Assembly: GCA_030704615.1 (NCBI GenBank)
Contig: CM060733.1
Location: 62,001-126,000, forward strand
Length of the DNA stretch: 64,000 nucleotides
Origin: Takakia lepidozioides
Lineage: Eukaryota > Plantae > Bryophyta
Direction: 5' to 3'
Below, piece after piece: positions 28,866-61,885 of the stretch (positions are counted from its first letter, which is position 1; each line of letters starts with the position of its first letter). The position numbers and the translations under genes are program-made. The notes below the pieces were generated by a model. It searched no databases and had not been told where the DNA came from. It saw only the letters and a program-made list of their open reading frames with translations.

Positions 28866-29177
28866 GACCGTTGGATAATGATGTTTGTTTTTCGGACGGC
28901 AGGCGTACCCTGAACGATTCGAATTTTGTAATGACGCAAAGTCCACGAGGAGACACTTTCGTCCAACCCTTTCGAACCCAAGTGGTGCATCACCGCCGTT
29001 TCATCTACTTTTGTCATGTCTCCTCAGTCACCCCTCTCGCGCCCTTTCCATCTGCACTCTTTGCCCCTTTTCCCTGTCTCTATTCTTCTTATGCTCGAAC
29101 CTGAGAGGGGGGGAGTTCGTGCACCAGACAGGAGACCTCGTCGCAAGCTCCGAAAATTATACTTCGGACGTAGGCCA

Positions 29178-34233: not shown

Positions 34234-34396
34234 AACAGGATGAGGATTCGGATGATTTTCAAGATTAATAGAATTTTAATGAAGTCTCTGTAAATGTAAA
34301 TTCTCTTCCAGAGTATATAAAGGAAATTCTCCCCGACATTTGTGACCCCTGCATTCCAGCCACATAATCGCCCAAACCACGACGCTCCCAAAATCA

Positions 34397-35230: not shown

Positions 35231-35487
35231 ATGTCCGACATGGCGTTACTCGGTATATTCTTGACACATACTCTCATACCGGTTACTCTGGTATATTCAT
35301 CCGGACAGACAAATGTAGAAATGAGACATCAAATTGTAAAACAGTGGGCCAATTCGACAGTTATTCAACAGAATTGAAACACAATCATACAAGAAGAAGT
35401 GAGGTTACGATGGGTTTATTGATCGGACACGATGTCTCACATTTACCAATTGCAGACAAAACTAAGCCCTTCTCCTTCTACAGGGCT

Positions 35488-36357: not shown

Positions 36358-36401
36358 CCCCTCTTCGATGTAAATGCGGCGCCGAATTTCCATCCGGGGG
36401 G

Positions 36402-37207
36402 ATGGACTTCGGTGTGCAGATCTCAAACTATAACTTGTTGATGAGAAAGATGTATGGGTTCATCCACCGCTGGCGTGATGAACACGTTCCACCTCCGTCG
36501 GTGGGTACGTGGGACCCAGATGCTCCATTATTGGAGGCCGGACTGCTCTTCCGCTTCGCATCATTTCCAAAATCTAAGGGCTTCGTAGCTGTCCGCAAGG
36601 TCATTGTCATCGGCATCCAAGTCGTCCTCAGGTCCTCCTTTGCAAGGATGCCGTGCTTCCGGAACCGGGACGACTGCCCATTTGGAGGCATCGATTATGC
36701 AATGTATTCGGCCACATCGGGAGTGTTATCTGGTACACAGATTACAGAGAAGATACTGGTTCGATTGTGGAAACATTGGTGGCTTTTGAGTATATCCTAG
36801 GCCACTACGCCTTCGAGCGGGGTGACGATCTTGGTCTGAGGAGTCCGTGGCTCCTGCGCATCCTCGATTCCGATTTTCCCAGCTACGACGGTCACCCATG
36901 CAGAAGAAGGCGCACTGCTATGCTGTTGCGGTGGAACTGCTGCCACTGGACGTGGGTGGACTCCATCGGAGAGACCTATTCTCCTGAAGGAGTGCGCTCC
37001 TCTTCTCCATTGTATGGGGACATTCGCATTGGTGTGGACGACGAAAACGTGAAGATTTCCATATTCGATGGTGGTATGATTGAAGGGCAGGACATTGTGG
37101 TGAACATCACTAGGGGCGGTACAACGGCTGCAATCGACTTTACCTGGAGGAGCCCCATGACTCATGAGCTAGTTCTGAGAGCAGTCGAAGTCCCATTGAC
37201 AACGTGA
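36402..37207 (+). CDS. Unknown MULE cargo gene B (~268 aa, one apparent frameshift near 36720)
   Basis: Overlapping ORFs 36402-36800 and 36653-37207 with blocks MPCFRNRDDCPFGGIDYAMY, PWLLRILDSDFPSYDGHP, RWNCCHWTW, YGDIRIG, SIFDGGMIEG and ELVLRAVEVP. Confidence 0.68.
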
Positions 37208-37616
37208 CTTGTATTCAGTAGGCACAGGGCTAAAGATTTGATTGCACAATCAGCACAGTAGACGTGCTTCAAATGCAATTCATGTGGATCAATAAAAACC
37301 TCATTGTGCCCTCTTTTTATTCTATTCTGTGTCCATCGTTCCGAGAATGCGTCATTGCTCATTTCGTTTGGGATTGGGAGTGTGGGTGGATTTTGCAAGT
37401 GGCTGGTAGGCTGAAATGGGCCCCCATTGTACAGAGCAGTACCACCCTTCCATTCGCGAAACATTGCCTTTCAATATATAATTCTAAATAACATTGCCGA
37501 ACCTCCTTCATCGGGAGGTCCTTCTCCCCCTATGACCGTGGCACCCTAAACCCTATTCCCGCGGACACTCATTTCCGGAAAATAGTGCTGCTCATGTTTT
37601 TTTCCACACTTACGAC

Positions 37617-37670: not shown

Positions 37671-37710
37671 CTACAGCCCTTTTGTTTTTTTTATTTCCAT
37701 TTATCAATCC

Positions 37711-40121
37711 AACTTTTTCAATCAATCTGGATGATATTATTATAGGATGCATGAACTAATGTACAGGAAGCTGGTTTACCATCTATTTCTTTCATCTAAA
37801 CTAGATGAACTACATGAATAATGGTTACCTGTTTTAAAATCCAAGAGATAATAAAACTACCATCATAAATGATGGCAGTTATTAAACCTAAGCCTATACC
37901 ATAACCCTAAAAGATACCTTTTATGGATGTCATCATTGACAATGTGCTTCTCTTGATAAAATGTGATTTTTCATCCACCTGGATGAGAAATCGGGAAGTA
38001 TTGCCCTAAGCACGCCGACACATTCACAACACTGAACTCGTGCTTCAGTGAACCTTGATGATGCGCCGCGTAAATCTGCTCCCCTGCTGCTACATGATAC
38101 TCGTGATGGCTGGCTCTTGGGATGCGCATTGGCGGTTAGGCAGATTCATCTCTGACAGACGACAAAGCGATGATCACTTTGCTCAGAAACTCATGGTTCT
38201 TTATTTTGCAGCGGCGCTTTTACTCCTCGTTGGGAAGTACTCTATCCCTATTTATATACATAGTACATGTTGCTCTCTTCTTGTATGAGCCATTCTCTAT
38301 CTGTGAACGCTTCTATTTTGATTTCTGTTGGAGACGATCTGTTGGACGCCATGGCGCAGGGCATACCACAAACACTCAAGGTTTTTTGAGTTTACCCTTG
38401 CTTGAATTGTGATCTGTACATGCTTTAGAATTCAACACTGACATGGATAGCAACTGTGAAGACCTGCCACTCACCTGCTGCATCCTCGCTAACACACATC
38501 GCTATGTGGTGGTTTTTGGGACGGGCACAGGTGAGGGTCTTCACTTGTCTTGATTTCTTGAAGCTTGCAGCTCCTGTTCTTGCAAATGTGGATACTGCTG
38601 CCTGCCTAAGCTGCTGATGCCATTTGCTGCTTCAAACTGCCACCATGCCGCTTCAGACCTGCTCCAAGATGGCTCCAATGAGGATCTGCTTCTCTCCTTA
38701 CCCCTGTTTCTGGTTTTTTTACAACCACATTTGCATGTGTAGGAGTTTAAGCTATGAAGGGTACAAGGGTACAAAATAGCAGTTATTACTCTGACTGCTT
38801 TGATACTTGGCTCTGAAATGAAACTTCTTGGTATGACTTTGATGGATCAAAAGGATAAGCTTTGATAGATAACACACATTCTTCAAGGCCCTCATATCAT
38901 TTTGGTTTCATGGCTTGATAACAAACAGGGGTTTCTGAGCTGCTCTTTCACCTTGGCAGAGCTATTTTATGAGGCCTTAAAATACCATTCCAGGCCTATA
39001 CCTGCTTAAGGGGGCTCAACCCTGTTGTTTCTTCTTCCTTTATAAGAATCTTGCTTGTATCTTGGTTCTGAAACATCAACTTCAAACCAGTACTGTTTCT
39101 TAGGGAAGTGAAATGCTCAAGACCTGGATTTTGTTTGCCTTGGCCCGCTAAAGACTCTCAATTTAAAGGCCTGGCTGCAGGCAGGGTTCTTCTGAGTTTC
39201 TTTGTTAACTCAGATCTTTGGAGGTTCTAGAATACCACTCAAGACCTAGATCTGTTTTGGAACACTCAACCTTGCATAGGTTTCTTGTTTACTGCTTGTG
39301 GTTTGGCATTGATACATCACCAAATTAGCTTTGGAATGAAACCTCTCAGCTTGACTCTGTTGTGTCAAACAGGTACGCCTTGTTTAGGGAACACACACTC
39401 TCATTATGGCTCTCATAGCAGTCTGAATTTGAGGGCTGATAGCAGGCAAATTTGGGATAATTTGCCTTGCTTCTGTTCTATGATTCCTGCTTTTGACACG
39501 ACACTGAAACGTCACCTTCAGGCCAGCAATAGCCTCTAGGGATAAGACTCGTTCAAAACCTGGATGTTGGCATGCAGCCTCATGATATATACCATGTCTT
39601 GAACCATGCCAATAGGGCAAGAGGAAACATGATGTAAACCAGCAAATGCTTAAGGCATATTTGTTTGACTGTTCAAACTCAACTTGAATTGTTTTTGAGC
39701 ATGAGTCTTGAGGAATGTCCCAAGACCTACAATCTGGTTTTCACAACTTGTTTTGCTAAGGTGTTGTGTCTACTTGCAAATACTTAAGGCATGAATGGCT
39801 GGCTGTTTCAACTTGAAGTGCTATGAGCTTGATTCTGGGAAATATCCCCAAACCTGCAATCTGGTTTTTGAAATGAGTTTGAAATGAGTTTTTGAAATGA
39901 TGGTGCAAACTATGGTGCTTTCATGATATGATTGACCTGGAATCCCACCCTCCCACCCTGTTTTTTCAGAGACCCTGAAATGTAATGGGGTATTCAAATG
40001 AGATTGTAAACATGAAAGGGAATGTTAGATGGTGCCCTGTAAAGGGCTGTTTTGTCTTTCAATGACAATGACCTTAGCGGTCTTGTCCATGTCTTGACAT
40101 GACATGTATATCTTCCCTCTC
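37711..40121 (+). repeat. Tandem unit copy 2 right part (to 39925) and start of copy 3 (39926-40121)
   Basis: Near-identical to 12690-15116. Confidence 0.93.
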
Positions 40122-40198
40122 TCTCTCTCCTCTCTTTCGTGCTGCTCACCAAAAGAAAAAAACCACAGAGGGAAAGAGGGGGTAGAAAAAGTTAATAA

Positions 40199-42500
40199 GA
40201 GAGAGGGAGAGAGTGGGAAGATATTCACGTCATGTCAAGACATGGACAAGACCCATAAGGGTCATTGTCAGTTAAAGACATAAACAGCCCTGGATAGGGC
40301 ACTATCTCACATTTCCAGTCTTGTCAAATCATCCCAAAAGACACCACCCAATCATCCAAGACAAAACAGGGTGGGAGGGCGGGGTTTGTTCTTGTGTGGG
40401 ACAAGATAAGATATTGTTGTCCTTGTGCATGCTGCAAGGCCTCTTGGTTCAGCCTGTGCATATACCAGCAGCTTACCAATTCAGCCATTAATTATGGCAG
40501 GTCATGCATCAGCCAAGGCATAAGGACCAGCCTGCATTTTGTCAGAATCTCAGTATCCCACCAAGCAGTCCAACTTGAGCCAAATGAAGTGGATTCCATA
40601 TCATTTGTATTCACCCCGAGACATGTGATCATACAAGGTATCAAGGGAATGTGAATGCAGCTAGTCAAATTGCAGGTTCAAGACTTGTACCAACAAACAG
40701 CATGAACAGCCAAGATCCATCCTCTTTTGTATAAAAAACAGATGGCAGGTCATAGGCCTGATGTCATGACAGATCCAAAACAATAGTTAGGATTCCATTG
40801 CAGCTTACCATCCTCGTCCTTCAAGAGTTCCATGCTAAGACATGCAAAGAACACCTTACTATGATCCAGTACACATTAGAAGTAGGCCTGATAAGGAGCA
40901 GGGCAGTACCCTACCAGGCTGCCGCCTTAAACTTCAAGGCCATCAGATCCATAGTTTCCCAAAACCGCCAAAAACATACCACCAAAAACCAGATCCTCTT
41001 TGGCCAAAATAACTTACAACCTAGCTTAGTAATCCACAGGCTTTGCTGTCAAAGATTAAAAGGTAGGGTATGGTTTGTATGCAAGCCTCAGGAAACAAGC
41101 CCGTCAGGTCGAGCTGCGCATTGGCGGCAGAACGACAAAGGCCAAAACGTAGGCTGGAGCATATCAAGTCAAGGGCAGTTGTGTTGAAATCGGGGCTGCA
41201 GCCAGCAGCCACCTCACAGCGCGCACAACCCTAGGTCTCCTCAGCCCATATCCCAATCTGCATGCTCAAGAAACTTCAAAGTAGGTGAGGATCCTCACCT
41301 GGTCCCATCACAAGCCCCCACAAAAACCAACAGGTTAGTGAGGATTGTGGAACCCCAGGTGAATCACAGACCCTCACACTTGTCATCGATGTCAACTAAG
41401 AAACTCAAAAGCAAGAGAAAGAGATAAGAACATGAGAATCCCTAAACTCCAAAGGCACCTAAGCAATTGGGGAAGAGGGTTATGTGCCATCACCACCCGC
41501 AGCAAGCCGCCTCCACAAAGCACATAAGCAATGAAGCAAAGCAGGCACAATCGCAAGGCACTAGAAAAGAGGGAGAGAACTTCCCATCATCAGCATCCTT
41601 GCTATGCACAGAAAAAGCCAGAGGAGAGAAGATGCCACTGCTTTCATAGCGGTGTTTCCCGCTGCAAGAGAGACAAGGCGCCGCCTTTGCGCCCCCCCAG
41701 GCGCTCGTCCAGCATGGGTACGACACCACAAACAGGGCAGCCACCAAAGCACGCCCGCCATAACACTCTCCTCGCCAGCTCAGAAGCACATCGCATGCTT
41801 CTGACAGCAGGAGAGACGACATAGGGTTGTCCCCCGATTATTCATCCGTGGATGAAAAATAGTAGGACAAATCCATATACCCTGACGGATTTCATCCGCA
41901 ACAAGGTTAAAAATAGGTTTTGGGGTAGGGGTTAGGGTTTCCACCGTAATTAATCATAATTAGGGGTAGTAAAGATCAATTCCAGGCCATAATCATATCA
42001 TCCATAGACAGATCATTTGTGTCAGGATGAAAAAGTAGGGAATATCATCCGTGGCAGCGCCTTACCTCCATCTAGGAAATTCTATCATTCCTTACCAGAC
42101 CATCCGGTATGGATAAAAAGAGTCAATAAAAGAGGAATGAAAAATTATCACCCCGTAGTTTTTCATCCGGTACGGATGGAAAAACAGGATGTTGTTGGCA
42201 ACCTCCATAGAGGTAATCCTTTTCTTCCATGGTGACTCATCCGGTATGGATGAGAGTCAATAGAGGAGGAATGAAAAGGCCAAAAGAACCATCCTAGAGG
42301 TAATTCAGTGTCCATCCTGGTGGCTCATCCGGTATGGATGAAAAAGCCTGATATAGGATGAGAAAACAAAATATCAACACTGATAGCAAACTGCCAATTC
42401 CCAGTAGAGAGGGAGACAGAGGGAGAGAGGGGGCAACAATGAAAAAAAATGGGTTGGGGGGGGGGGGGGGGGGGGGTTCAGATGGTGGGGTCAGCTACAC
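40199..42500 (-). repeat. Diverged inverted paralog of the 12609-15116 part of the tandem unit (unclassified non-coding element)
   Basis: 40199-40387 is an imperfect reverse complement of 39941-40121. 41258-41398 matches the reverse complement of ~13435-13570. A TCATCC/GGATGA cluster at 41841-42362 mirrors 12690-12980. Confidence 0.75.
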
Positions 42501-43195
42501 CATATGTCAAACACCAGATATCCTAAGTTAATCGACTCTATATCTTGGAAACAGGACCGCCCACCGACCTGTCAAACAGGCTAAGTCTTGGCAGAAGACA
42601 GTAGAAAAGATTCTCAAGGACCTTGACCTGGAACCGCAAGTCTTCACCCTGTTGGATAAATCTGACTTAGAGGCTGTAGTGTCCAACCATGTCTGTTGCC
42701 ATGAGATTGTCTGATGAAAATGAAGTTAGGCAAAAAACTTCCCTGAATTTGTTTCCAGTCAGTGACATGGGGAGGACATCTTGGATGACCTCAAGGGTCT
42801 ACCCACTCTTGGCACTAGACTGAAATTTAAACTCAGGGCAGGAAGCCTACCTTTGAACAGCAAACAGAAGCAGAGAGGAAAGGGAGAGTGCAATTGCCCG
42901 TTGTGTGGGCAATCTGAAGACAATACTCATTTTCCGATACACTGTCCAGGGTTCTCTCACCAAAGAGACGCTCTCTTCAAATCTATCAAGGGAATTGTGC
43001 ATGTACCTCTGTTTACTAACTTTGAAAAAGTCGAGGCTGAGCCAAAAGCCCAGCCCCTTCTGAGGCCTAGTTTTTGGGCATCTCACACATAGCAGATTGA
43101 TGCTTGTGTGAAGGGATTTGTAGAGGATATCTGGAAAACCCGGATTAATTCTATATGTGAAGGTAAGTCTTACTACCAACGTCAGCCCCTGACAG
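42501..43195 (+). mobile_element. 5'-truncated non-LTR retrotransposon (LINE) ORF2 C-terminal fragment
   Basis: KFKLRAGSLPL...CPLCGQSEDNTHFPIHCPGF..QR (CCHC zinc knuckle)...FVEDIWKTR, typical of a LINE ORF2 3' end. Confidence 0.75.
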
Positions 43196-43229
43196 AGGTA
43201 GGATCTGTCCGTTTTGTTTCCCCAAGAGA

Positions 43230-43337
43230 GGGGCAACAAAGAAAGAAAAAAGAATGTGGGAGGGGGGGGTGACTGAGCAACAGCAGCTGCTCAGTCACTT
43301 CCCCCCCCCCACCTTCTTTTCTTTTCTTTGTTGCCCC
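43230..43337. repeat. ~108-bp imperfect hairpin
   Basis: Perfect core GTGACTGAGCA-8nt-TGCTCAGTCAC, with outer arms GGGGCAACAAAGAAAG / CTTTTCTTTGTTGCCCC. Confidence 0.85.
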
Positions 43338-43399
43338 CTGATGTTTCCCTCTCACTCCCTCTCTCTCCCTCTCTTCTGTGTTGCTCTCTTTTAAGCTCC

Positions 43400-43610
43400 C
43401 AACGAGATAAAATCAAGGTTAGATTGTGGGTTCAGCTGCAACATATGTCCAACACCAGATATCCTAAGTTAATCGACTCTATATCTTGGAATCAGGACCG
43501 CCCTATCAAACAGGGTGAGCCCTGGGAGAAGAGAGTAAAAGAGATTCTCAAGGATCTACCTTTGAACAGTAAACAGAAGCAGTGAGGAAACGGAGAGTGC
43601 AATTTCCCTG
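43400..43610 (+). mobile_element. Second, internally deleted copy of the same LINE fragment
   Basis: HMSNTRYPKLIDSISW...ILKDL is fused directly to LPLNSKQKQ; matches 42501-42622 and 42847-42898. Confidence 0.75.
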
Positions 43611-43616
43611 ACGTAC

Positions 43617-43990
43617 CTCTGCTGCTGCTGGTGCTTGAAGCGAGTTGGCGCGGCGAGCTGCTGCTGTGCTGTCGCGGCTGCCAGCGGCGCGGGTCCCCAC
43701 CGTTGCAGGGCGTCTCTCCCCCGCTCACCATGGCTCTCTCTCTTCAGCTCGTTAGGTCGCGCCTCTGCGCGGCGTTCCTACCACACAGGGGAGAGAGACA
43801 TCAGCCCGTGCTTAGGGCAAGAAAGAAAGACAGAAAGTGAGGGAGGAGGCGGTGCTTACCTTGGGCGTTGGAGCGGCGTTGGGGCAAACTCCTTGGGGCC
43901 TTGCGACCACCTCGGGCTCAGCAGCAGGTGCGGTTCTCCTCCACCCTAAACCCCACTCTCTGAATTACCTCTCTCCCAAAGAACAAACGA
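43617..43990 (-). other. Probable 5' exons of a host gene (UTR exon, 82-bp intron 43778-43859, exon 43617-43777 with ATG at 43731)
   Basis: Minus-strand donor AAG/GTAAGC, CT-rich intron ending GTGGTAG, GCCATGG start context, next donor GAG/GTACGT. GC-rich, non-repetitive sequence. Confidence 0.42.
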
Positions 43991-44747
43991 AAACGGGAGG
44001 CGAAAGAGATGCTTCAAGCACTTAGGGGAAAAAAAAGGCGCGGCACCCACGTGCGACGCCCGGCCGTCGCACGCATGCGCCTGCCTTTTTTTTGAATTGT
44101 AAAAATGAAGTTTGCGACGGCTGGCCGTCGTTTCTTGCGACCCCCGGCCCCATAAATTAAAAAAACACGTCGCTCCCCGCGACGGCTGTCCGTCGCGGGG
44201 TGCGACCCCCAGGTAAAAATTATAAAAATAAAAAAAAATAAAAAAAAATAAAAAAAAAAAAACCTCGTCATCAAATACGACGCCAGGGTGTCGTAGGAGG
44301 CGACGGCCGGCCTTTCTGGGTTTTGGGTTTAGGGCCTTTTGGGTTTCTTAGTTTTTTTTTTTTTTTTTTTTTTTTAAAAATAAAATTTATATTTATGTGG
44401 TACTGGGTTAGGGTGTTTGCTTTTCTTTATGGTGTTGGGTTTTGGATTGGCGGTTTTGGTTGTGGGTCTTGGGGTTAAAAGGATAAACGGTGTAATAACG
44501 ATTCACATACCCAAAATGTGGTTCAATCTGATAATCGCAAAGCGCTGGGTCTCAACAAATTTTTCCATGGTGTGGGCATCCTGAAGATAGAACGAGATGA
44601 AGGATTTATTGTCTTGGGCTCTAGCACCATAGGGATGCTCCGCCTTTGGTTACCAACTTTGAAAGCCCCGAGGCTGAGGCATAGGGTTTTTTTACCAATG
44701 GTTTTTGAGAAATGAAAGTGTTGGTGGTGTGTGTTAATTAGGATGGG

Positions 44748-46461
44748 ATGGTGAGGAACCATCGATCCGTCTCCCTCGAGGATGGGGAGGTAGTACCACA
44801 TATCGATTGTGGCCCTAGAGCGACCATTTTTTGTGGTGAGGAGCCACCCATTGCACCTGATCCAATACAGGCTGCCGGGCACAATCGTAGAAGGGACCGG
44901 GGCCAAATTTCAGGTGATGCGGAGGATGTTGACACTCCGGGATCGAGTCGGGCGCGCCGCGGGTTGCCCCCTCGCGGGCCACCCCATCCAACCACGTCCA
45001 CCTTTGAAACCCCCCCCCCCACAGGATTGAGTGTTGGTGCACTAAGTGTTGGGAACGGATACCGCCGGGTGGCACCAGACCACCGAGGCGGCGACCACAT
45101 GTTGTCGAAAAACATTACAAGAAGAACAAGATTGCGGATGCGGCAAATGTGAGTGTTTTTCCCACCCCTCTCATTAACATTCATTTAAGGTACATTTAGG
45201 TTTATCTAATAATATAGTATGATTGGTAAGCATACATGAATCAAAATTACGACATAAGTATTGATGCGTCATTCACTACGCACATTGCAGCCACGACTTG
45301 ATGCCCAAGCTCGCAATCACATTGCACAGGAGGCAATTCGCATCGGTCTACTTGCAAAATTTGTGCAGAGCATGTGCCCGATGTGACCAGTTGGTTCCCC
45401 CAGCAGCACGTAGATGAGATGCATAGGGTCGAGGGGTATCGTAGGTGTCGTAGGCATTATGGCCGGCGACGAGCAGGCCCACCCCCCCCTCCAGTTTCCT
45501 CAGGCGGTCCCCCTAATTGTGGCCTCCCCCCCCCGGTCTGTTTCTTTGCCTGATCCACCTCTGGTTGTACCTGATCCGGACATTGTACCCCCGGCTGCAC
45601 CTCCGACATTACATCCTCAACCACCTCCACTTTCATCTCCTCCGCCAGCAGTACCACCTCCACCTCCACCACCACCACCTCCACCTCCACGTGCATGTGC
45701 CCCCCGAACCCCTTAGGAGGGGTCGGCTTCGCCCTAGGTTTCCTCCCCTTCGACTTGGGCGGCCTGAGCCGGATCCTCGCCCCCGATGGGAAGCGCATAG
45801 GACTATGTTACTGAGGACCGTCCAGCCTCATTGTTGGGGGAATCATCTCGACCCTCCCACCCCCATCCGAGAAAATGTGGAGTTCGAGTATTGGGGGAGA
45901 CGGTATGTTGTGAGAGCCGCTACAGACCCTGATATGGGTCAGGGTTTATTCACGGTCAATGATATTGTGGCTCCTCGGAGAAATAGCATGGTGGACTTGT
46001 TTCCTTACTACGGTCCATACTACACCTCCGCGGAGTTCCGTACATTATGCCTCGAAGCCCCATACATCCTACCCTACATTTTGTGTGTCAACGGACATGA
46101 TGTACGTAGACGGGGGTTGTTTCCCATTGAGATCAAATTTTGTGATGGTGACCCCGACATCTTCGACAATGTTACTGGGCTGGTCAATAGTTCTTTTGGT
46201 CATCCTAGGAGAACCAATGTAGTATGGGACAAGCAAAGCGATGGGCATGAGAGCTTTTGTGGTCATACGTCAGTATACTGTGAGAGGATGCACATGTTTG
46301 TGATGACATGTGCTAGTAGGACTATTAGGGCTGGCAGCGAACTATTTGCATCATACGAGTTCTCCCGGGATGATTGGGACCTCCGATTACAACGTGAGTG
46401 GGATGTGTATGATAGAAATAGGGTTCCTTTGAGACAGGGATCGTGTAGAGGGGCATTGTAG
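44748..46461 (+). CDS. SET-domain protein (SET at ~45904-46362) preceded by a Pro-rich linker; probable intron 45149-45290 and frameshifts in the 5' half
   Basis: VRAATDPDMGQGLF (GxG), LFPYYG, DG...NVTGLVNSS (NHS-equivalent), NVVW, VMTCASRTIRAGSELFASY (ELxxxY). Confidence 0.78.
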
Positions 46462-47577
46462 ATATTCTCATGATGTACTTTGTATACATCCAATTAATCG
46501 ATTGATGTAGCTTTTTTTCTTGTTGCTCGTGTGGGTTGCAACTTTGCATATGTGATCTAAACATACTTATGCACATGTGGACCAAATATGAGCTTGAACC
46601 AAGTTGATTCAATGGGTCATTCTAGTGTTGAACGGAGCTACGTGTCATAGAGACGGAAAATTGTGTTTCGCCTGCAGATGATTTTTTTTTTATCCCATTT
46701 TCAAGCCATATGCTTAATGATAGCATATGCAATGTGCGTGCAAAATTTGGGAGTAAACAAAAGTCATTTGGACCCATAACCAGATTTTGTTCTCTCATTT
46801 GCACTCCAAAGTTAAGTTATCCTCAACTTCATGCATTCTTCATAGAGAGTTTTGCAAAAGTGACCCTAGAAACACACTTATTTTTTTTCCATTTTTTTTT
46901 GTCCCATTTTTTGCATGGATGTAGTGGTGCAAAGCTTGATGTTACAGAACAAAATAGAGCTAAAAATAAAATCATTACGCCCCTCAAAACCACAATCATA
47001 TATTATCTAAATGCAAATTTTTATTTTAAATTCGATTTAATTCAAAATTGGTGTAAGGGTGAGTGCGTCGTTGGGGAGGCATTTTTTTATTTTGTTTATT
47101 TTGTTTAAATTTTATTTTATAACCTGCTGGATCTTTGTACAGGTGTTGCACACATATTTAAACACATGTAGGAAAAAATGAAGCTTGAGCCACATCCCTT
47201 TGTTGGGTGCAATGGCATGAGAGGATTTTCTTTCACATTAATAAACAAAAATTGGTTGATAGGGTGAATGCGTCATTGGGGGGGCAAATGATTTTGTTTG
47301 GGTTTGAAACTTCGCATGCGTGTACGTTGCGCACATACATGTAATTATTGAATGACATATTTGATGCACACACACATTGAAGGTTGTTGTTTGCATTTCG
47401 CTTATAATGAAGTGTATGGTTGCAAGGACACATTATAATATATATCCCTATGATATTTGTTCGTATCAGGACTTTGTCCATCCCTTCCCGGTCTTTTCTC
47501 TTGGCACCCCATCCGAAAACAACCCAAGTACATCAGGCGGGAGCCATGGGCGAGACGCCGCACCCACGGTACCGGCC

Positions 47578-48926
47578 ATGAAGAGGGAACTCGGCCAATC
47601 GAATCCTGAAATGGCCCCCTCAAATGACATGGAGAGGGAGGCGAGAACTCCCTTGTACGAAGGGGCGAAAGTGAGTCGACTTTCAACAATCTTATGTTTG
47701 CCGATCAATCTTCAAATTCGATTTGGCATAAGTAATGTTGGGATGTCTGCCATAATGCGAACTATTGCAAACTATATCCTTGCTCCACACTTGTCACGAT
47801 CGCGGAAAGAGGCGCGCGAAGTCTTGGACTCTGTGGGGATGGGCTATAAGATTTTTCATGCATGTCCATGTGATAAAACCCTATACTACGGAGAGGATTC
47901 GCATCTCACCAAGTGCCCAAAGTGCAATAAAGACCGATATCGGGATGATGTCCAAGGGAAAAAAGTACCACGCAAGGTATAAGCGCCATTCCCCCTCGCA
48001 TGGAGATTACTTTCTTTAATCTTCTTAATGTATGTAAAGTGTATTCCACAAAGTTTAGGGTTTAGAGAGTAGTACTCATGCAAGATCTGATTGTGGTTTT
48101 GGAAGGAGTGAGTGAGGAGTGGAAGGAGCGACGTTCGGTTTTGACCATTCACACCCAAATGAGGGAGAGGCTGCATAAAGGGAAAGACATAAGGGTGTTG
48201 TATTATGTGTGCTAATGGGATGATTACATGTGGGGGGCGTGGGGTATTTCATCCTAGAAAATGCATTACTTTCCGATCATCCCGCGATTGAGGGCACAAT
48301 ACCGAAGCCCCGAATTGGCCAGACTCATGAGATGGCACGCCTCGCATCGGAGCCCCGCAGGAAAGGCGTGCGGGCCACAAGATTCACAAGCATGGAGGCA
48401 TATTGAAGAGATGTGGCATTTTCTCTTGGAGGACCCACGACATGTCCACCTCGGCTTCTCCTCGGATAGGGTCAACCCATTCTTTGTCCAGTCATGTAAT
48501 CATTCCACTTGGCCGGTGACCATGGTGAATTACAACATCCCTCCGTATCTTTCAATTAAAAAAGGCCATATCGTGTTGGCTGCCATTGTGCCAGGTGAGT
48601 GTACTCATTTCATGTTTATTATTGCATTAGACTTTACATTAAACTTATGATCTCTGACGCAATTCGGATGCAAGATTGATGAGTGACATAATCATGGAGT
48701 AAGACGTGTAATTCATTTTGTAGTATAGTTTGCATATTGATGGAGCATTGAAACAATGATGTGAATGTCTCATAGGGAAAAAACAAGTGACAAACATGGA
48801 CACGTACTTGCGACCTCTTGTTGATGAACTTAAGGAGCTATGGAGGGGGGTCCCGGCATTGGATGCTTCACTTGACCCTATGGCCGGACAATCTTTTCAG
48901 ATGAGAGGCATCTTGCTTTGGACAAT
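47578..48926 (+). pseudogene. CACTA Tnp2 (Transposase_21) transposase, 5' exons
   Basis: TPLYEGAKVSRL, HACPCDKTLY..KCPKC, HYFPIIPRL, DSQAWRHI, NPF..STWPV..YNIPP, DTYLRPLVDELKELW. LLWT/MHDYP is split by the retroelement. Confidence 0.9.
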
Positions 48927-51900
48927 TGTCGCGGCCCTTGGCCTTGAGGGCAGGGGGGTCGGGACACAAGAGGGGCTGCCCCTGTGGTGGGGGCAGTGGC
49001 AGCGATAGGTATGGGGGGCTGAAGCACCCTTGAGTGCCCAAGGCACTCAAGGAGGCGGAGGCGCTCACTAGGTGGAGCCCCGCACACCGGGTTGCGGTGG
49101 GGGTGGTTCCACAAGGGGTGGTGGTAGCTTAGCGGGACTTAGTGGGGGTGGCATAGGACTCACCCTGGGGCGGAGACCTCGTGGTGGGAGTCGTGGAGAG
49201 TCTTGGGACTCATCACGGTCCATAGGGGCCGTGGTGGGTGGGCCAAGACTCACCGCGACTCATCACCGGGAGTCGAGGGTGTTCGTGGTGGTTCGCCATA
49301 AAATGGCATGGTTGTTTGTGAAACCCCCGCGGACAACTACAGAAGTATATATAGGGAGTAGTAACCCCGAGAACGGTGCAACCCCGTTGGTGACCAAAAA
49401 CTAGTGAGCGAGCGAGCGAGCCGGAAAGCGACCAAAGAGTGGGGAGCTGTTCCGGACTGCCAACTACCAAAGGGAATTCCGCTGGTTCCAAATCATTAGA
49501 GGGTTCTTTGGGAGATCAAAGGGGGACCGTTATGCCCCGGTGAGCAGCCGAAGCTCCAGGTTGGCCCGGCGGCCAGGTTGGGAGTTAGGCGCGCGCATCA
49601 AGCGAGCGACTATGACTTGAGGGGGGAGCTCACTGAAGTGAGGTGCGCGATCGTCCTTGGGATTGGCCTCATCATGGGGTCGGGCAAGCCAAAGCGAAAG
49701 TAGAACGACCCAAAAGATGATGATCCTGGTGAGCCCGATGGGGGCGACGTGTCACCGAGGCGGCCGTTTGAGAAAGCGATGCATGTTTCCAAAAACGAGG
49801 CTGCTCAAGAGCGGGATGAATCTGAGGAGTCGGAGCCTGAGGAATCCCTGAGAGCTCCGACCGACCAACAGATGTCTCCCATGCCGGCAGCCTTTTGGGA
49901 AGGGTTGTTGGCGCAATTTGGCGGGACATTAAAAGACGTGTTGAAGGCGGCTAATGCCACTTCCACTAAGGCAAAATTTAAGGTGAAGCCTAAGGAACCC
50001 GGCACCTTCGAGGGCGTCCAAAATCGGAAGGCACTCAATACCTGGCTCTTGGAGCTAGAGCAGTACTTCTGGGCAGCCAAGTTGAGTGATGAGGATCGGG
50101 TGGAAGTGGCTCCCACCTATTTGAGGGGCTATGCTCAACAATGGTGGCAGAAACACCTTCACAACCGAGGTCCAAGCCCGGAAACCTTGAATTGGAGTGG
50201 GTTCAAGGAATTGATGAAGAGGCAGTTTGTGCCCCTCAACGCGTCCTGGCTCGCCCGGGACAAGATGAGGAATTTGAAGCAAACAGATGACATTGGGGTA
50301 TATGTTCTTGCTTTCAATGTGCTGTTGCTCAAAGTCGCGGACATGGCAGAACCAGAAATGGTCTTCAACTTTGTGGCGGGACTGGCCCCATGGGCCAGGC
50401 GGAAGTTGGAGGAGAAGCCACCTAAGACTTTGAACGAGGCAATTGAGAGGGCTGAATGTTTCTCAGATGTCCCTAAGGGTGAAAGACAAGGCCGTACGGA
50501 GCTGAACCACAAGAAGACCCGGCGGGAAGGTGACTCCTTCCGATAGGAAAAGAAGTGGGATAGGCCACGCGGCGACAATGGCACGTGGAAATCAAAGGGA
50601 GGGCCTTCACAAGTCAAGGCGGCACCCGGTGTTTCGAAAAGAAAAGCGGGTGGAGCGGCTTATGGCGGACAGAAGACGACCTTTGATGGAGTGTGTTTCA
50701 ATTGCGGGGAGCCCGGGCACATGGCCAAGAAGTGCAAGAAGCCCCGACAATTGAACATGACTCGGGCGACCACAGAGCTGTCGGAAGATACCATCAGTCG
50801 CTTGGTGGAAGCGGTGGTCGCCAAGACTTGCAAGGTAGGCAAATTTTCTTGTGAGTTGTATCAGGAAACTGACGCCTTACGTAAAGGGAGTCAGTTATTG
50901 TTCGTGGATGGGATAATATCTGGAACTAACGTGTCGTTGTTGGTGGACACAGGAGCGTCGCACTCCTTCATGACACTGGCAACGACACAAAAGCTGGGAC
51001 TCCCGACAAGTGACGTGGGGGCCTCTATTGAGGTGCGTTCTGCCAAAGGAGAACCGCAATTGCGACAATGTTGGCGTTTGATGTTCCTCTTCAACTGGGG
51101 AGTTGGGAGGGACGTGAGAACTTCACCATCTGCGAGATCGATGGAGTGGATCTCATTCTGGGGATGACCTTTTTGAGCAAATCCGGAGCAGTCATAGATG
51201 GCCGCAAGAGAGTAGACACGCTGCCATGTGGGAATGGTGGCGAGGTCTTACGAGTGTCGGAGACGCCCAAACCCGTGGGAGGGCGAATAAACCTTCTGTC
51301 AGCAAGGGAGTGGGCCGTAGGGAGGCACACGAGCCCAGTTTTTGCTCTCATTAGAGAAGTGAAGGGAAAAGGCGATGGGGAGCCGAGCCTAGATTGGATC
51401 AAGGGGATTTTTGAGAAATACCAGGATGTGATGCCGGAGGATTTACCAAGCGACTTGCCACCACGAAGAGGAGTTGACCACAGGATTGAGGTGATACCGG
51501 GATCGGAACCGCCTGCCAAGGCGCCCTACCGGTTGAGCCACAGAGAGTTGGTCGAGCTGAAGACTCAGCTCAAAGATCTAATGTCAAAGGGGTACATCCG
51601 ATCGAGTAAGTCACCTTACGGAGCCCCGGTGCTATTCGCAGACAAGAAGGATGGGACGCTGCGGATGTGTGTCGATTACAGGGCTTTGAATAAGGTGACT
51701 ATCAAAAACCGGTACCTTTGCCAAGGATCGACGACCTTTTCGATCGGTTGGCAGGAGCGAAGTATTGCAGCCGGATCGATCTGCGCTCCGGCTATCATCA
51801 AATTCGAGTGGCGGAAGGAGATGAGGAGAAGACCGCGTGCAAGACAATGTATGGTTCATATGAGTTCTTGGTGATGCCTTTTGGACTCACCAACGCTCCC

Positions 51901-54900
51901 GCGACCTTTAGCACGCTGATGAACAGCCTTTTCCAGGAGTGGTTGGATGACTTCGTGATTGTGTACATCGACGACATTTTGGTGTATTCGAAAACAAAAG
52001 AGGAGCACCTGGAGCACCTCAAAAGGGTGTTCCAGAAATTGCGGGAAGGAAAGCTGTATGCCAAAGCTTCAAAGTGCGAATTCGGGGTCACAAAAATGGA
52101 GTTCCTGGGGCATGTGATTACACAGGATGGGATCAGAATGGATGACAGGAAGGTGATGGCAATCTTGGACTGGGAGCCTACGACTTCGGTCCCGGGAGTG
52201 CGATCCTTCCTAGGACTCGCCTCCTATTACCGGAAATATGTGAGAAATTTCGCCAAGATCGCGGGCCGCTGTCAGACCTTCTGTGTAAATCCAAAGTCTG
52301 GGCATGGAACACCTTTTGTGGCCAAGCTTTTGCTGAATTGAAGCAGCGGATGGCGGAAGCTCCTGTCTTGAAAATCCCGGAGTTCGATCGTCCGTTTGAG
52401 ATTCATACAAATGCGTCGGACTTCGCGATTGGGGTGTACTGATGCAAGATGGACGTCCAGTGGCTTACGAAAGTAAGAAACTGAATGAAGTGGAGCGACG
52501 GTGGCCGACGCACGAGAAAGAGATGAAGGCGGTGGTGCACTGTCTTGAGTTTTGGCACCACTATGTTGGTTCCAACCCAGTGAAGGTGTTCACGGACAAT
52601 GTCACGGTGAAGTATTTTGCCACGCAGCCCAAGTTGTCCCCAAAACAACTTAGGTGGCAAGATACTTTGGCGGTGTTCAACGTGGATATCCAGTACAAAC
52701 CAGGACGGGACAACGTGGTGGCCGATGCTTTAAGTAGAAAGCAACAGCTCTTGTTGGTGTATAAGGGCGAGACGACGCTCCAAAGGAAGATCCGGAAGGC
52801 TTGCCGGAAGGATGAGCTGGCGAAGTCCGTGATGCAGGACTTGAGGATGAGGGTTAAATCGCAGTTCCACTTGCAAAATGGACTGCTCCAGTATAAGCAA
52901 AAGCGTCTCTACGTGCCGAAGGGAGGGATCAGAGATAGCCTCTTGAGAGAATGCCATGATAGCCCGCTTGCGGGCCACGGCGGAGCCAGCGCACTGCGGC
53001 ACTCTTGAAGAAAGAGTATTTCTGGCCCAAACTGAGGGAGGAGGCAGAGGAGTATGTCAAGACATGCACCACATGCCAACAAAACCGGAGCGAGTACAAA
53101 AAGCAAGCGGGGCTGTTACAACCCTTGCCGATTCCAGAGGGGACTTGGGAAAGCGTCTCGATGGATTTCATGACTGCATGCCGCTGTCAAAAGAATTCGA
53201 TGCAATCATGGTGGTGGTGGATAGGTTCAGTAAAATGGGCCATTTCATCCCCACCAAGGAGACGGCAACGGCGCAGGAAACATGACGACTTTACTTTGCC
53301 CACGTCTTAAAGCATCATGGAGTCCCGAAGGATATTGTCTCGGACCGCGATCCAAAGTTTACAAGTAAATTTTGTAGGGCACTTTGGAAGAAGATGGGGA
53401 CGAGGCTGAAGATGAGCACCACCGCCTTCCGACCTACGACCGACGGCCAAACAGAAAGAGTGAATTCCGTAGTGAAGCAGATCTTGCGGAATTACGTGTC
53501 GGCAGACCAAACAGACTGGTGGAACACTTAGACGCGGCAGAGTTCTGTTATAATAACACAGAACACTCCGCAACGGGAGTTTCCCCTTTCGTATTGGTCT
53601 ATGGAAAAGCACCTCTGGTGCCGACAAGTTGGACCGCCCAGGACGTTGAGGAACCGGCAGTAGCGGCGGTACTGGAAGAACGCGAGCGTTTGTTGAAGCT
53701 CGCAAAGTACAACATTGCCAAAGCTAGGAAACGGTATGAAAGGCAGGCGAATCGGAAGCGGAGGGAAGTGAAGTTTGAGGCAGGCACGGAGGTCTGGTTG
53801 AACATCAAGAATTTCCGACTACCTCCGGAAGTGAGTCCAAAGTTCGTACCTCCGTATGCGGGACCCTTTCGCATCCGGAAGGTTATGAATGAGGATGTGT
53901 ATGAATTGGAGCTGCCGGCAAACAGCAAGGTGCATCCAGTATTCCACGTCTCCCTTTTGAAGCCTTACTTCAAAGATGAAGCGCGTCCGAATCGGCATCA
54001 AGTGTTGCGTCTGCCACCTGTGCTGTTGGATCATGAAAATGAACCTAAGTACGAGGTGGAGGCAGTACTTAAGTCGAGGAGGTTCAAGAACCGAGAAACA
54101 GAGTATCTCGTCAAATGGAAGGGCTATCATCATGTGGAGGCATCTTGGGTGTGCCTCAGAAATGGGAAACGCATCCGAGGCGGTTGCAGTTTTCGAAGGG
54201 CGACCTCAAAAGCGGAAGAAGCGTTGATGGGGACATCAACCTTGGAGCGTGGGGGAGGAAATGCATGCTTAGCCCGGCTTAGCTAGCTTAGGAATCTGAT
54301 TGCAAAAACTTGTATTGTACAAAAATTTGTTATAAAGGAAATGGGTTCCAAATGTTGTGCGTCCTATTTTGTTTGGAATGGTGATGCATGGTGTGGTTGG
54401 CTAGTGTGTAGAATGCATGCTATTTTACAAAAGTGGGAGAGGTAAATTGGGTTAATCGTGTGTTTGCGCAGTGCCAAAATCGGGTGACTCCCATCCAAGG
54501 GGCAAGGAAACTTGCGCCTTCTTTAGGAGTTCACGTGCTAGTGCGCACCTGGCGCGTGCGCATACTATAACTGCGCTACCGAGGGGGTTGCTTTGTAGTG
54601 CGGGCTAACGCGGAAGCTACGTGCTTCCGTTCACGTACTATAATCGTGTAGCCTCGGGACGAAGTCGTAGTGCGGCTTCGGCGTGTTCCCGTACCTCAGG
54701 CCAGCATTCCAAGGCGGACCCAATTGTAGTGATTGGGGCGCGCGGTTGGTTCAAGGTTATCTTCCTAGTCAAAGAGGGTTCGAGGTGAACCCTTGCTCAA
54801 GGTGATGCCAAAAGCGGCATCATGAGCGGTCGCAAGCAATGTTGTTGCAGTAAGGCGATTCGATCCTCGGGGAGGATCGTTCCTTGGCCTTGAAGTAGGC

Positions 54901-55859
54901 CAAGAAGAGTGCACTGGGAGGAGCTTGAGAGGCTCCACCCTTGGCCGGGACTTGGAGGAAGTCGGCCGAACTAGCTAGTGGAGAGTAGAGTCAAGTGTGG
55001 GGTTTGGTTCTTTGCCATGGGACGCCATGGTACGGAAACAAACTCCTTGATGTGGGACGCCACAACTTGGATGTTCGTTTCTACAAAATGGACAAGCCGA
55101 TGAGGACATCGACTCCCTGTTGGTAGGGGTGTGTGTCGCGGCCCTTGGCCTTGAGGGCAGGGGGGTCGGGACACAAGAGGGACTGCCCCTGTGGTGGGGG
55201 CAGTGGCAGCGATAGGTATGGGGGGCTGAAGCACCCTTGAGTGCCCAAGGCACTCAAGGAGGCGGAGGCGCTCACTAGGTGGAGCCCCGCACACCGGGTT
55301 GCGGTGGGGGTGGTTCCACAAGGGGTGGTGGTAGCTTAGCGGGACTTAGTGGGGGTGGCATAGGACCCACCCTGGGGCGGAGACCTCGTGGTGGGAGTCG
55401 TGGGGAGTCTTGGGACTCATCACGGTCCATAGGGGCCGTGGTGGGTGGGCCCAGACTTACCGCGACTCATCACCGGGAGTCGAGGGTGTTCGTGGTGGTT
55501 CGCCATAAAATGGCTTGGTTGTTTGTGAAACCCCCGCGGACAACTACAGAAGTATATATAGGGAGTAGTAACCCCGAGAACGGTGCAAGCCCGTTGGTGA
55601 CCAAAAACTAGTGAGCGAGCGAGCGAGCCGGAAAGCGACCAAAGAGTGGGGAGCTGTTCCGGACTGCCAACTACCAAAGGGAATTCCGCTGGTTCCAAAT
55701 CGTTGGAGGGTTCTTTGGGAGATCAAAGGGGGACCGTTATGCCCCGGTGAGCAGCCGAAGCTCCAAGTTGGCCCGGCGGCCAGGTTGGGAGTTAGGCGCG
55801 CGCATCAAGCGAACGACTATGACTTGAGGGGGGAGCTCACCGAAGTGAGGTGCGCGACA
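48927..55859 (+). mobile_element. Ty3/Gypsy chromovirus copy 2, nested in the CACTA transposase
   Basis: LTRs 48927-49650 and 55134-55859. TSD ACAAT at 48922-48926 and 55860-55864. Same family as 21901-28865; PBS deleted. Confidence 0.96.
49674..54227 (+). pseudogene. Gag-Pol of chromovirus copy 2 with chromodomain; stops and frameshifts
   Basis: Same motifs as copy 1 (VDTGASH, YIDD, EYLVKWKGY); premature TAG codons at ~49701 and 50544. Confidence 0.93.
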
Positions 55860-55864
55860 ACAAT

Positions 55865-57814
55865 GCATGATTATCCAAGTATATTATGTTCCCCATGAAC
55901 AACCCGCGTACATTCACTTGTCAATGCCGGATAATATCGATGAGGATTGGGATTGATTGAAGTAGCGACGACAGTCTTGTGCACCGTAGTGGGGTAGATG
56001 ACATTATGGGCCAGTCTTTGTGGGTGGGGATATATGTAGGACATGAAGATTCGCCATCTTCTAGATCCCATGCATATTGAGAAGAATGTCTGCTCGTCTT
56101 TTTTTCGGGTTCTTCATGGCACGCCGACAAAGAAGGGAGTGGCTGCAAAAGGAGATTATCTCGGTGTTAGAAAGGAGCTTGAGGAGCAGGGTCGCATGCG
56201 CCATCTATGGGCCGAACAAAATGGTGTGGACCCAAAGGGTGTTGTACGGTGGAAGTATAGGCGCGTACCTTGGCAATGGACAAAGGAGGAATACAAGAAA
56301 GTGATAGCCACCATAAGTGCTGTCCAAACACCAACTAGTTATGGGTCATCCCTCCGTACGAAGTTCAACGAAGAAGACGGGGTCCATGGTTTGAAGTCTC
56401 ATGACTACCATAATCTATTGCAAGACATCTTGCCCATTGCAGTACGTGGGACATTGACTCCCGAGGTTCGTGAGACAATCTATAGATTGGGAGGCTTGTT
56501 CCGGTGGATTTGCTCCAAAGAGTTGGAAGAAGCAGATTTTCCACGCATGAAGAAGGAGGCGGCAGAGGTAATGTGTATGTTGGAGATGCACCTTCATCCC
56601 TCCTTCTTTGACATCCAAGTGCACTTGGTAGTGCACTTAGTGGAAGAGGCTTCGATTGCCGGCCCCGTTCATTCTCGGTGGATGTACTTCCTTAGCGTTA
56701 TATGAAGACTTTGAAAGGATTTATAAGACAAATGGCGCATCCAGAGGGTAGCATGGCGGAGGGGTATACGTTGCAAGAAACTATGTTCTATTACATGGAG
56801 TACATGGCAAGGGTGGATGAGGAAGCCCATCGGATGTGGAAGGAAGATGAGGATGCACGAACCAATGACATCGTTTTGCCCAAAAAATCGAAGAGGGTAA
56901 AATTGCCGACCTTGGTGATTGAGCAAGCGCATGACTTTATACTGAAGAACACCCCATCCATACATGAGTGAGAGGCAAGATACAATAATCTTGTTCAGCA
57001 ACGAGAAGAGGAGATGCTTGCATGGAGGCGGAACCATCCAAGGCCGGATACTAGACACCCACGACGAGGAGCGGGCCGCCGGAATGTTCCTTCACAAAAT
57101 TTGCCCATGGAATTGCAGCCTCTAAGTTCATTCCAACAGTGGCTTCGGACTTCAGTTTATGACGCCGTTGCTCAAGGAGAGGTGGTTTCAGATTTGGTGC
57201 AAGACATTGCAAGGGGCCCCTCTCAATTCGCGACCTCATACACGGCGGTTTGGATTCACGGTCGTCATTTCCACATTCGTGCTCTTGACATGAAGCGCAA
57301 AACAACCTTTGATTCTGGCTTGTGTGCCACATATTGGCAAGACTACGTGTGGGGCAAGGGAGATACACAACCTGCTATGAGCAAACTTGAGTACATTGGA
57401 GAGCTTGAGACCATACTCCAACTTCAGTATACAAGGTACCAGCCTCTTCTCTTCAAGGGAAGGTGGTACCAGCCACATCTTGTGGGGCCCTCCGAAACAC
57501 TAGTGCAAGATGATTGTGGTTTCATGCGCGTCAATGCAGATAGGCTCAACCCTACTCATCGTCCCTCCGATGAGCCTTTTTCACAGCCTTCAGACATGGA
57601 GCAAGTTTTCTTCTCCGATGACAAAACAAGAGGGGGGAATTGGAAGGTGGTTGTGCATGCTCAGCCAAGAGGAAGAAGTATCTATCATGGTCTCGGATCT
57701 CCATGGGGTGAGGCAATTGCGGTGGATGGAGAGACTGGTCATAATGATGCTGATGATGGAGGTTGGGTAGAGGGGGTAGAAGAGGATGATGATGCCCCGG
57801 ACAATGCATCCTAG
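55865..57814 (+). pseudogene. CACTA transposase 3' part (DUF4218 and DUF4216 regions), followed by an acidic tail
   Basis: RHLLDPMHIEKNV, GLKSHDYH, FFDIQVHLVVHL..GPVHSRWMY, HPEGSMAEGY, YIGELETILQLQY..LFKGRWY, EPF..QVFF..WKVV. Confidence 0.9.
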
Positions 57815-59266
57815 ACCCTATATGATGAAGCTCTAGAAGATACGGATGTTGGAGAAGGAGACGAAGACACGACAATTGACAACGAGGTGGAGGATGATTC
57901 GGAGGTGCCTTTTGAGGGCCGGACCATTTATGACGATGACTCCGATGATCAAGAAGACTTGCAGCTTGATGAGAATGAAGAGGCTCCGGATGATGATGTT
58001 CAAGTTGATTAGACACAAAATCAAAGCTACATAACAATTCTCGCACCGAACTGGACCCATCCCTTCAATTGATTGTACATGTACATGCATATTGTACTTT
58101 ATTTCTATCATTGATCAAATATGGCTGTGGCTGGTAGTCTTTCAAGAAAGAAGGCAAAGGCAATGAATATGTTGGAGCAACACATACAGATCTGGTATCA
58201 AGAGAATTATCAAAATGAATGTCACAATCTACAAGAAGGTCCACAACAACAAGCTAAACCATAAAGAAAAACAAACACCCTACCCCAGTACCATATGAAA
58301 AAAAAAAAAAAACTAAGAACCCCCAAAGGCCCTAAACCTAAACCTAGAAAGCCCTGTCGTCGCTACCTGCGACCCCCACGCGTCGCCACTTGCGAGGCGG
58401 TTTTTAGGATTTATGAGGCCGGGGGTCGCAAACGGCGACGGCCAACCGTCGCAAACGACGACCTATTTTTTTGAATGGATTTATGAGGCATGGGGGGTCG
58501 CAAACGGCGACGGCCGGCCGTCGTAGGGGCCTTTTGCCCTTCATGCCACCATGCGATGGCCTGGCGTCGCAAGAAAGGGTTGCGATGAAATAAATGGCAA
58601 GAAAGGTTTTTTTTTTTTTCCGGCGTGCGCCGACCGGCCATCGCCAAAAAGTGCTGCCTTCTGCCCTTCGCTAGGGACGATGCTTGGGCGTCGCACGAAA
58701 GGGTTGCCATTTTCCCTTCATCACTCCGTGCGACGGCCAGGCGTCGCCGCCTGGCCCCGGCACCAGGTGGCGACCCGCGGGGTTTGGCTGCGACGGCCCG
58801 GCGTCGCAAACACGCTCCGCGGGGTTGGCATCGCACATTCGGCACCGCGCGGGGCGTGGGGGCGCGGCTGGTGTCGCAAACCCCCCCCCCCCCCCCCCCC
58901 CCATTTGTTGTAGTGAGCATAAGAACTAGTGTGATAAGTAGGGTTGGGGTGTTTGCTGGAACAATTCTCGAGCTCTAGCTGCAAGACAAGGATGTATGCA
59001 TGATTTGTGCAGAGGCATGGATAGCTGAAGGAGCAGGGATAGAGAGTGGGTCCAGATTCATCCAAGAGGGCCGGATTTCAAGCTCCAGATTACCTATGAT
59101 TCTCTGTGGATCAGTAGCTACAAGAAACCTGCATGGGCAGATGGTTAACTAAAGGCAGCAGCTGCAGCGGCACAGTTGATAAAATCAGGCACCTCAACCA
59201 CGACCAGAACTTCTGAAAGAGGATTAAGAGAGGATCCACAATGCCTCTTCTAGCACTTTTGGGCAT

Positions 59267-61867: not shown

Positions 61868-61885
61868 AAGGATGTTTTCTTGGAA

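Follow-up and report, generated by a model that had tools for sequence, protein, structure and literature searches.

The window analyzed in this study, 64,000 nucleotides of the Takakia lepidozioides genome (contig CM060733.1, positions 62,001 to 126,000, forward strand), harbors a dead copy of an EnSpm/CACTA transposon, which is frameshifted and whose transposase is split by a gypsy retrotransposon. Upstream of the transposase, this copy carries an exon encoding a divergent SET domain whose predicted fold is secure, and the SET region is a multi-copy part of the EnSpm/CACTA family. A working model is proposed in which the locus represents a decayed copy of a land-plant element present in multiple copies, the SET isoform of which, sharing exon 1 with the transposase, would act as a SAM-dependent lysine methyltransferase marking the chromatin of the element's own copies and thereby favoring transposition; taken as a whole, this model is given slightly less than an even chance. 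The features of the element are as follows.

44050..44445, no strand assigned: left subterminal repeat array of TGCGAC...GTCGCA units, inverted with respect to the right arm
44748..45148, plus strand: exon 1 (start codon presumed), linker and CxCxxC...H motif at 45032
45149..45290, plus strand: intron 1, GT-AG, phase 0, skipped in contigs of X8 and X9
45291..46461, plus strand: SET exon, helical/Pro-rich linker followed by the SET region with a pre-SET extension (about 45811-46395)
47470..48926, plus strand: 5' exons of the transposase (TnpD/Tnp2), acceptor 47470 in phase 0
48927..55859, plus strand: Ty3/gypsy chromodomain retrotransposon inside the transposase, target duplication ACAAT
55860..58012, plus strand: 3' part of the transposase, interrupted by stops and frameshifts (DUF4218, DUF4216, acidic tail)
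58247..58915, no strand assigned: right subterminal array and CACTA terminus, flanked by AGC

Assignment to the plant-type EnSpm/CACTA elements is based on the transposase domains Tnp2 (PF02992, 48258-48927), DUF4218 and DUF4216 (both within 56040-57811; the DUF4216 match, E 4e-5, lies under its own cut-off) and on subterminal arrays at both ends. The inverted arms match each other (44050-44445 vs 58247-58570), and their GCGAC density amounts to 12 and 21 per kb compared to 2 per kb inside the element. A CACTA terminus was detected at the right end only (58915; minus-strand reading CACTACAA), whereas a search left of 44700 recovered no left terminus accompanied by the matching AGC target duplication. 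An earlier reading made from the sequence alone had placed the SET frame upstream of Tnp2, as observed here, and inside the CACTA ends; the latter statement holds for the right terminus and the matching inverted arms but not for the left end. The repeated unit reaches beyond the left array, at least to 43900, since X1 contigs cover 43900-43996, a high-copy segment in X1, joined to 44111-44119. Within the long frames scanned between the arms, no Pfam match to TnpA/PTTA was obtained. The proposal that the SET gene stands in place of TnpA/PTTA is weakened by the fact that TnpA-like proteins are apparently confined to flowering plants (PMC13547354; 10.64898/2026.08.24.746577) and that the closest named relatives come from a liverwort and Ginkgo, so that the absence of TnpA may be ordinary. 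Regarding the transposase, its 5' part lacks 118 bases at 47575 in comparison to another copy. The LTRs of the gypsy element at 48927-55859 are 99% alike across their first 300 bases, and an X4 contig joining 48921 to 55860 reveals that other copies have an empty gypsy site.

The surroundings represent repeat-rich plant DNA, comprising gypsy elements and a broken PPR gene that adjoins the CACTA element. This gene (59000-61870), located directly right of the CACTA terminus, is by eye of the PLS class with a DYW-like end; many related sequences are present in X4 and X9. A second gypsy copy, inverted, occupies 22553-28865, with LTR ends 95–97% alike to those of the transposase-inserted gypsy over 74 bases. 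Moreover, a 2.4-kb repeat is present at 37700-40128 and 12686-15122 (97.7% alike), ending in the hairpin element 40010-40324. Left of the CACTA element, a LINE-like high-copy segment (about 42400-43610) is followed by a GC-rich repeat outside the left subterminal array (43610-44040) with a minus-strand splice-donor-like site near 43860, and the minus-strand frames at 40330-44060 encode no evident protein. At 41043-41783, a contig of X9 (probable RNA) skips 41298-41634, which is readable as a minus-strand GC-AG intron; this segment shows an X4 depth like that of the CACTA element and no evident protein, and may or may not belong to the missing left arm. A second CACTA right end at 62700-63068, reading CACTACAG on the minus strand, has the same TGCGAC...GTCGCA units and no coding region, and probably belongs to a non-autonomous relative. 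Furthermore, a decayed element at 28900-37500 contains the palindrome GGAAATGCGG(C/T)GCCGCATTTCC, densely arrayed at about 34440-35200, plus-strand words that by eye appear methylase-like (IILDIPDG, DLICGTG and AYEED, 32750-33550) and a possible minus-strand gene (35400-37200). This arrangement recalls the repeat-flanked accessory cassette of red-algal Plavaka/Mutator elements; the element yielded no methylase or MULE Pfam match. The methyltransferase-like cargo formerly attributed to a neighboring MULE likewise lacks a basis in the Pfam matches, as neither a methyltransferase nor a MULE domain was detected in the frames scanned.

The frame 45517-46461 is open over 314 amino acids from stop to stop, terminates at 46459-46461 and bears the motifs GQGLF, PYYG, NVTGLVNSS and RTIRAGSELFASY, as recognized from the sequence alone. 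It was the sole match in the window's six frames to a profile built from 46 relatives, from which the window sequence had been excluded (E=7e-43). Screened individually, the window protein obtained no Pfam match, PF00856 included, and a PDB sequence search with it returned chance HTH matches only, which were discarded. Likewise, a word-indexed protein search gave no matches with the single protein and seven with the alignment. A full HMMER scan of 1.84 billion representatives revealed 57 relatives at E<=0.001, 23 of them at <=1e-10, sharing 26–44% identity with the window SET protein. Among these, 39 of 57 matched the Pfam SET model (PF00856) at E<=0.05, and 21 reached its curated cut-off. In a PDB sequence search with the family profile, RomA/LegAS4 was the best match (E 1.5e-5), followed by MLL1 and EZH2. 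As also stated previously, the SET region is preceded by a Pro-rich linker (45414-45716), which in the window copy lies in another frame than SET.

Residues of the family were assigned to the canonical SET motifs by eye alignment. On this basis, the two motif I glycines are found in 43/45 and 45/45 relatives, all 46 have Tyr or Phe at the motif II position, and the Asn of motif III persists in 39/46 and the terminal Tyr of motif IV in 37/40. The window copy itself possesses the GxG of motif I, the Tyr of motif II, the Asn of motif III and the terminal Tyr of motif IV; a motif III site occupied by Tyr or Phe in 41/46 relatives is Leu in this copy. The replacement of the NHS His by Ser, correctly read before together with the lack of post-SET cysteines, occurs in 44/46 relatives and is thus a family-wide trait. 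Furthermore, the motif III Arg is changed to Gly or Ala, and the Phe/Tyr switch position mostly holds a small residue (Ala, Val or Cys). Post-SET cysteines are absent from the window protein and the family; no reader, pre-SET, post-SET or other flanking chromatin domain was recognized in the 57 relatives, and no known DNA-binding domain was found. Accordingly, the traits of canonical host histone methyltransferases (Set1/Trx, E(z), SUVH, ASH and ATXR), namely the RFINHS-type His and flanking domains, were not observed. In yeast Set1, His-to-Ala and switch Tyr-to-Ala/Val mutants are still active, some with more trimethylation, and Asn-to-Ala and terminal Tyr-to-Ala mutants are null (PMC3585878). 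Since Set1 His-to-Ala mutants keep activity and the family keeps both Asn and the terminal Tyr, the residue pattern suggests that NSS would be compatible with catalysis. Multiple methylation by this enzyme is plausible from its residues.

Structure prediction with the single window sequence was unusable (pLDDT 35). AlphaFold2 supplied with a 47-sequence alignment yielded a model with pLDDT 84.2 and pTM 0.81, for which every match listed by Foldseek against the PDB is a SET protein (E 4e-6), with SET7/9 on top and SET8, ATXR5, EZH2 and MLL1 among the others. The best VIA-align result was Set1/COMPASS (Z 12.6, rmsd 2.5 over 126 residues); Z values of 12.6 to 11.7 for Set1, SET8, SUVH6, PRC2 and PRDM5 are effectively tied. 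In the ESM Atlas, a value of 0.96 to SET clusters was obtained. Giant-virus and haptophyte neighbors in the Atlas and matches in BFVD were also observed; they were not counted as evidence for a viral origin. Recovery of the fold by both profile and structure searches, in combination with the multi-copy evidence, agrees with the initial description of a divergent SET domain carried by a transposon family rather than an obvious captured host gene.

Concerning the distribution of the family, an organism was on record for six of 30 representatives looked up, five being from Riccia sorocarpa and one from Ginkgo biloba. The Riccia subfamily P0006, P0058, P0059, P0026 and P0081 is distributed over five scaffolds. 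In P0081, the order is cysteine motif, SET and acidic stretch; P0026 consists of SET, the acidic stretch of P0081 and, after these, a segment that matches the transposase of the window at 47629 (E=1.9e-4, computed against the window; reached in 0 of 2000 shuffles). Thus a liverwort has the corresponding arrangement, with the cysteine motif first, SET second and the transposase last, at a SET identity of about 30%. In a tree of 41 family rows without outgroup (six of 47 rows, each shorter than 140 residues, were left out), the window sequence fell into no supported set, and Riccia sequences formed at least two well-separated SET clades. A seed-plant member of the SET clade, P0037 (Ginkgo Gb_21150), groups with P0011, P0012, P0016 and P0023 in a well-supported subgroup. 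Pattern-limited scans of viral contigs and prokaryote genomes confirmed 0 of 33 and 0 of 50 pattern matches, respectively, and a metagenome scan provided a single locus, whose 1104 bases do not suffice to establish its context.

In total, 4622 X1 contigs matched 43900-46800, with a summed depth over the SET region like that of its flanks. In X4, the SET bins showed depths of 58–96, which is the same order as the transposase bins (104–215) and far below the gypsy element (4,400–10,800), where contig depths in X1 and X4 are not to be equated with copy numbers. A single copy is excluded because many variant contigs exist. The idea of a single-copy, neutrally decaying fragment of a host SET gene is therefore contradicted by thousands of X1 contigs and by relatives of the same family.

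The window copy does not contain an intact gene from the ATG at 44748 to 46461. Five extra bases at 45008, which other copies lack, shift the frame; other copies have one base more at 45365; and an X9 contig that covers 45544-46469 has 912 bases vs 926 in the window, a net deficit of 14. Applied by hand, these three indel differences restore one frame of about 132 + 385 = 517 codons, continuity across 45514-45543, which the listed X9 pieces leave uncovered, being presumed. Among 40 listed variant rows (209 in all), 37 were classified after rows 44531, 44532 and 45020 had been dropped; 29 of these are of the C-to-T type, and 21 of the 29 lie in CG or CHG, compared to 34% of cytosines. This pattern fits methylation-type (CG/CHG) decay of the window copy. 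Of the 14 differences listed between the SET domain of the window and other copies, 10 are non-synonymous; this proportion fits neutral decay of the window copy but does not serve to test whether the family is under selection. One listed difference moves the window copy off a residue kept in 41/46 relatives.

The intron at 45149-45290 is skipped by contigs of X8 and X9, two probable RNA runs from two studies (taken as RNA by guess), in agreement with its GT-AG borders and with its previous recognition; it is retained in contigs of X5, X6 and X7 and in one X8 contig. The cysteine cluster CGCGK/CH formerly read across this intron had to be abandoned, as its frame hits a stop four codons past the splice. 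A cluster that does match the relatives, RIECWCTKC...H at 45032, is read in the 45008 frame, which stays open; translated by hand, a divergent X8 junction preserves the frame and shows two synonymous changes at third positions. This cluster is the only CxCxxC...H motif between the arms of the element, and RIxCxCxxC, a pattern picked after the data were seen, occurs once in the window vs 0.03 times per shuffled window. The same motif opens P0002 and the Riccia proteins P0014 and P0081, with a variant in P0028. Altogether, it is present in a minority of relatives (four clear and four partial cases among 38 with a long N-terminus), many relatives being single-ORF calls, which would lack exon 1. 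The exon-1 peptide of the window has no Pfam match, and a four-sequence profile of the cysteine motif did not detect the window. Residues 1-42 of P0081 resemble clusters bearing PF13963, the CACTA transposase-associated domain, in 7/7 structure rows (TM 0.71–0.76), all of them below the naming bar and based on a model of low confidence (pLDDT 0.44).

Both the SET acceptor at 45291 and the transposase acceptor at 47470 are in phase 0, like the exon-1 donor, and no exon-1-like domain was seen in the transposase frame. From the lone CxCxxC...H motif, the transposase frame devoid of such a domain and the phase-0 acceptors, two isoforms of one gene are deduced. Exon 1 probably encodes a transposase-associated zinc domain and would also be spliced, with phase 0 on both sides, to the transposase exon beginning at 47470. 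The SET protein is thus likely a splice isoform having exon 1 in common with the transposase, not a free-standing cargo. An exon-1-to-transposase junction was not among the 15 joints listed of 36, and in-frame Met codons upstream of 47470 would permit a separate transposase start. An X9 contig runs past the SET stop, to 46469; zero cover of exon 1 in X4 proves nothing. Production of transposase and regulator by alternative splicing of one gene is the classic plan of Spm (10.64898/2026.08.24.746577; PMC13547354).

In the proposed model, alternative splicing would join exon 1 either to the SET exon or to the transposase exon at 47470, and intact copies would, with somewhat better than even likelihood, encode an active enzyme of about 517 amino acids. 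The shared N-terminal domain may then recruit the SET protein to the element ends or to the transposase itself, and histone lysine methylation there could assume the regulatory role of flowering-plant TnpA; this step is regarded as tentative. Methylation-type decay of the window copy implies that any protection is incomplete.

Alternatively, the enzyme may be active on a non-histone target, so that transposition would be tuned through methylation of the transposase or of a silencing protein of the host, a reading considered fairly unlikely. It is suggested by SET7/9 as top Foldseek match, several of these structures being complexed with non-histone peptides, by a SET protein without recognizable reader, pre-SET or post-SET domain, and by the shared N-terminal domain, which could bring the SET protein to the transposase. 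However, histone enzymes with many different specificities tie as best fold matches, so that these favor no substrate, and the best profile match, RomA/LegAS4, reportedly methylates histone H3. A less probable option is that the enzyme marks its own element, or insertion sites, repressively, serving self-limiting control rather than anti-silencing. Minimal viral SET proteins can write H3K27me3, the fold matches include EZH2, SUVH6 and ATXR5, and the window copy is heavily methylation-decayed; yet old copies decay under any model, and the plant transposon regulators described, VANC and TnpA, are anti-silencing. About equally improbable is a catalytically dead SET fold acting as decoy, lysine reader or scaffold. 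Loss of the NHS His throughout the family, the change of the motif III Arg to Gly/Ala, the lack of post-SET cysteines and weak Pfam scores (21/57 at the curated cut-off) point in this direction. On the other hand, with an overall identity of about 30%, relatives keep the glycines of the SAM site, the Asn and the two tyrosine positions of the active site, RomA/LegAS4 carries N-F-S at motif III, and Set1 tolerates His-to-Ala (PMC3585878).

Two further explanations concern the origin and extent of the SET frame. Very little probability is attributed to SET being part of one long SET-transposase fusion protein: the Riccia models P0006, P0026, P0059 and P0081 join SET to the downstream acidic stretch, but they truncate SET ahead of its terminal Tyr, an X9 contig continues past the stop codon of SET, the window's closest GT donor (46394) has phase 1 vs the phase-0 acceptor, and no SET protein with a Tnp2 domain was found among the longer proteins, a weak test (1 match among 92 candidates). 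CACTA elements capture gene fragments, and the window copy is a pseudogene, as would be expected of a host SET gene fragment that is carried neutrally. This explanation ranks as the least probable, considering that no close host gene exists among the 1.84 billion representatives (best match 41%), that the Riccia relatives are multi-copy with the same part order, that motif conservation spans liverwort and Ginkgo, and that the net indels in X9 restore one frame.

Among known systems, PAG2 of red-algal Plavaka elements (EnSpm/CACTA superfamily) is a SET protein carried by a DNA transposon and proposed to be a chromatin modulator (10.1101/2025.02.11.637652). As described there, PAG2 is a separate gene of a three-gene PAG1-3 cassette in the Plavaka lineage and fuses SET to the DNA methylase domain PF01555. 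By this description, the element in the window differs in its Tnp2/DUF4218/DUF4216 transposase, the lack of an attached methylase and a SET exon likely sharing exon 1; PF01555 (N6-adenine methylase) is absent from the window frames and the 57 relatives. Furthermore, SET methyltransferase-like genes have been described for oomycete HarbingerS and MuDR elements (PMC12730594) and for the Phytophthora proto-Helentron (PMC4067079). These resemble the window in their transposon-borne SET and differ in superfamily and host. The Helentron SET, moreover, strongly matches the standard SET model (E 3e-24) and is 50% similar to Clr4 (PMC4067079), whereas the window protein has no Pfam match. The anti-silencing systems Spm TnpA/TnpD and VANDAL VANC of flowering plants likewise comprise an accessory protein beside the transposase that regulates element chromatin, in Spm often produced by alternative splicing of one gene. 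However, TnpA is a tandem-HTH DNA-binding protein with no described methyltransferase domain, and the main text of the preprint lacks the word methyltransferase (10.64898/2026.08.24.746577). SET7/9, SET8, Legionella RomA/LegAS4 and giant-virus SET proteins share the fold, the lack of a post-SET zinc cluster and motif III drift; these minimal enzymes reach at most about 25% identity to the window protein in structure alignments.

Capture of SET by transposons is hence already known, having been published for Plavaka, HarbingerS, MuDR and Helitrons, with a putative function in all of them. For SET in a land-plant CACTA element, no account was found in the literature searched, mostly as listed titles, and Repbase or preprint supplements may hold entries. 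New in this study are the host lineage, the distinct SET clade and, likely, the shared-exon design. The family is mostly missed by standard annotation, given that the window copy has no Pfam match and 21 of 57 relatives pass the cut-off, and it inflates lists of 'SET domain genes' in genomes such as that of Riccia. A compact, possibly self-targeting methyltransferase could also serve as a tool.

More speculatively, and on balance rather doubtful as a complete scenario, an old land-plant CACTA lineage extending from liverworts to at least gymnosperms may have its own SET clade, produced as a transposase splice isoform and tethered by the zinc domain, which would deposit histone methylation on cognate copies and represent a counter-silencing device predating TnpA. 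The plant anti-silencing proteins described so far (VANC and TnpA) are DNA-binding factors, and a chromatin writer encoded by a land-plant transposon would represent a different strategy and offer a direct test of self-regulation in CACTA elements without TnpA.
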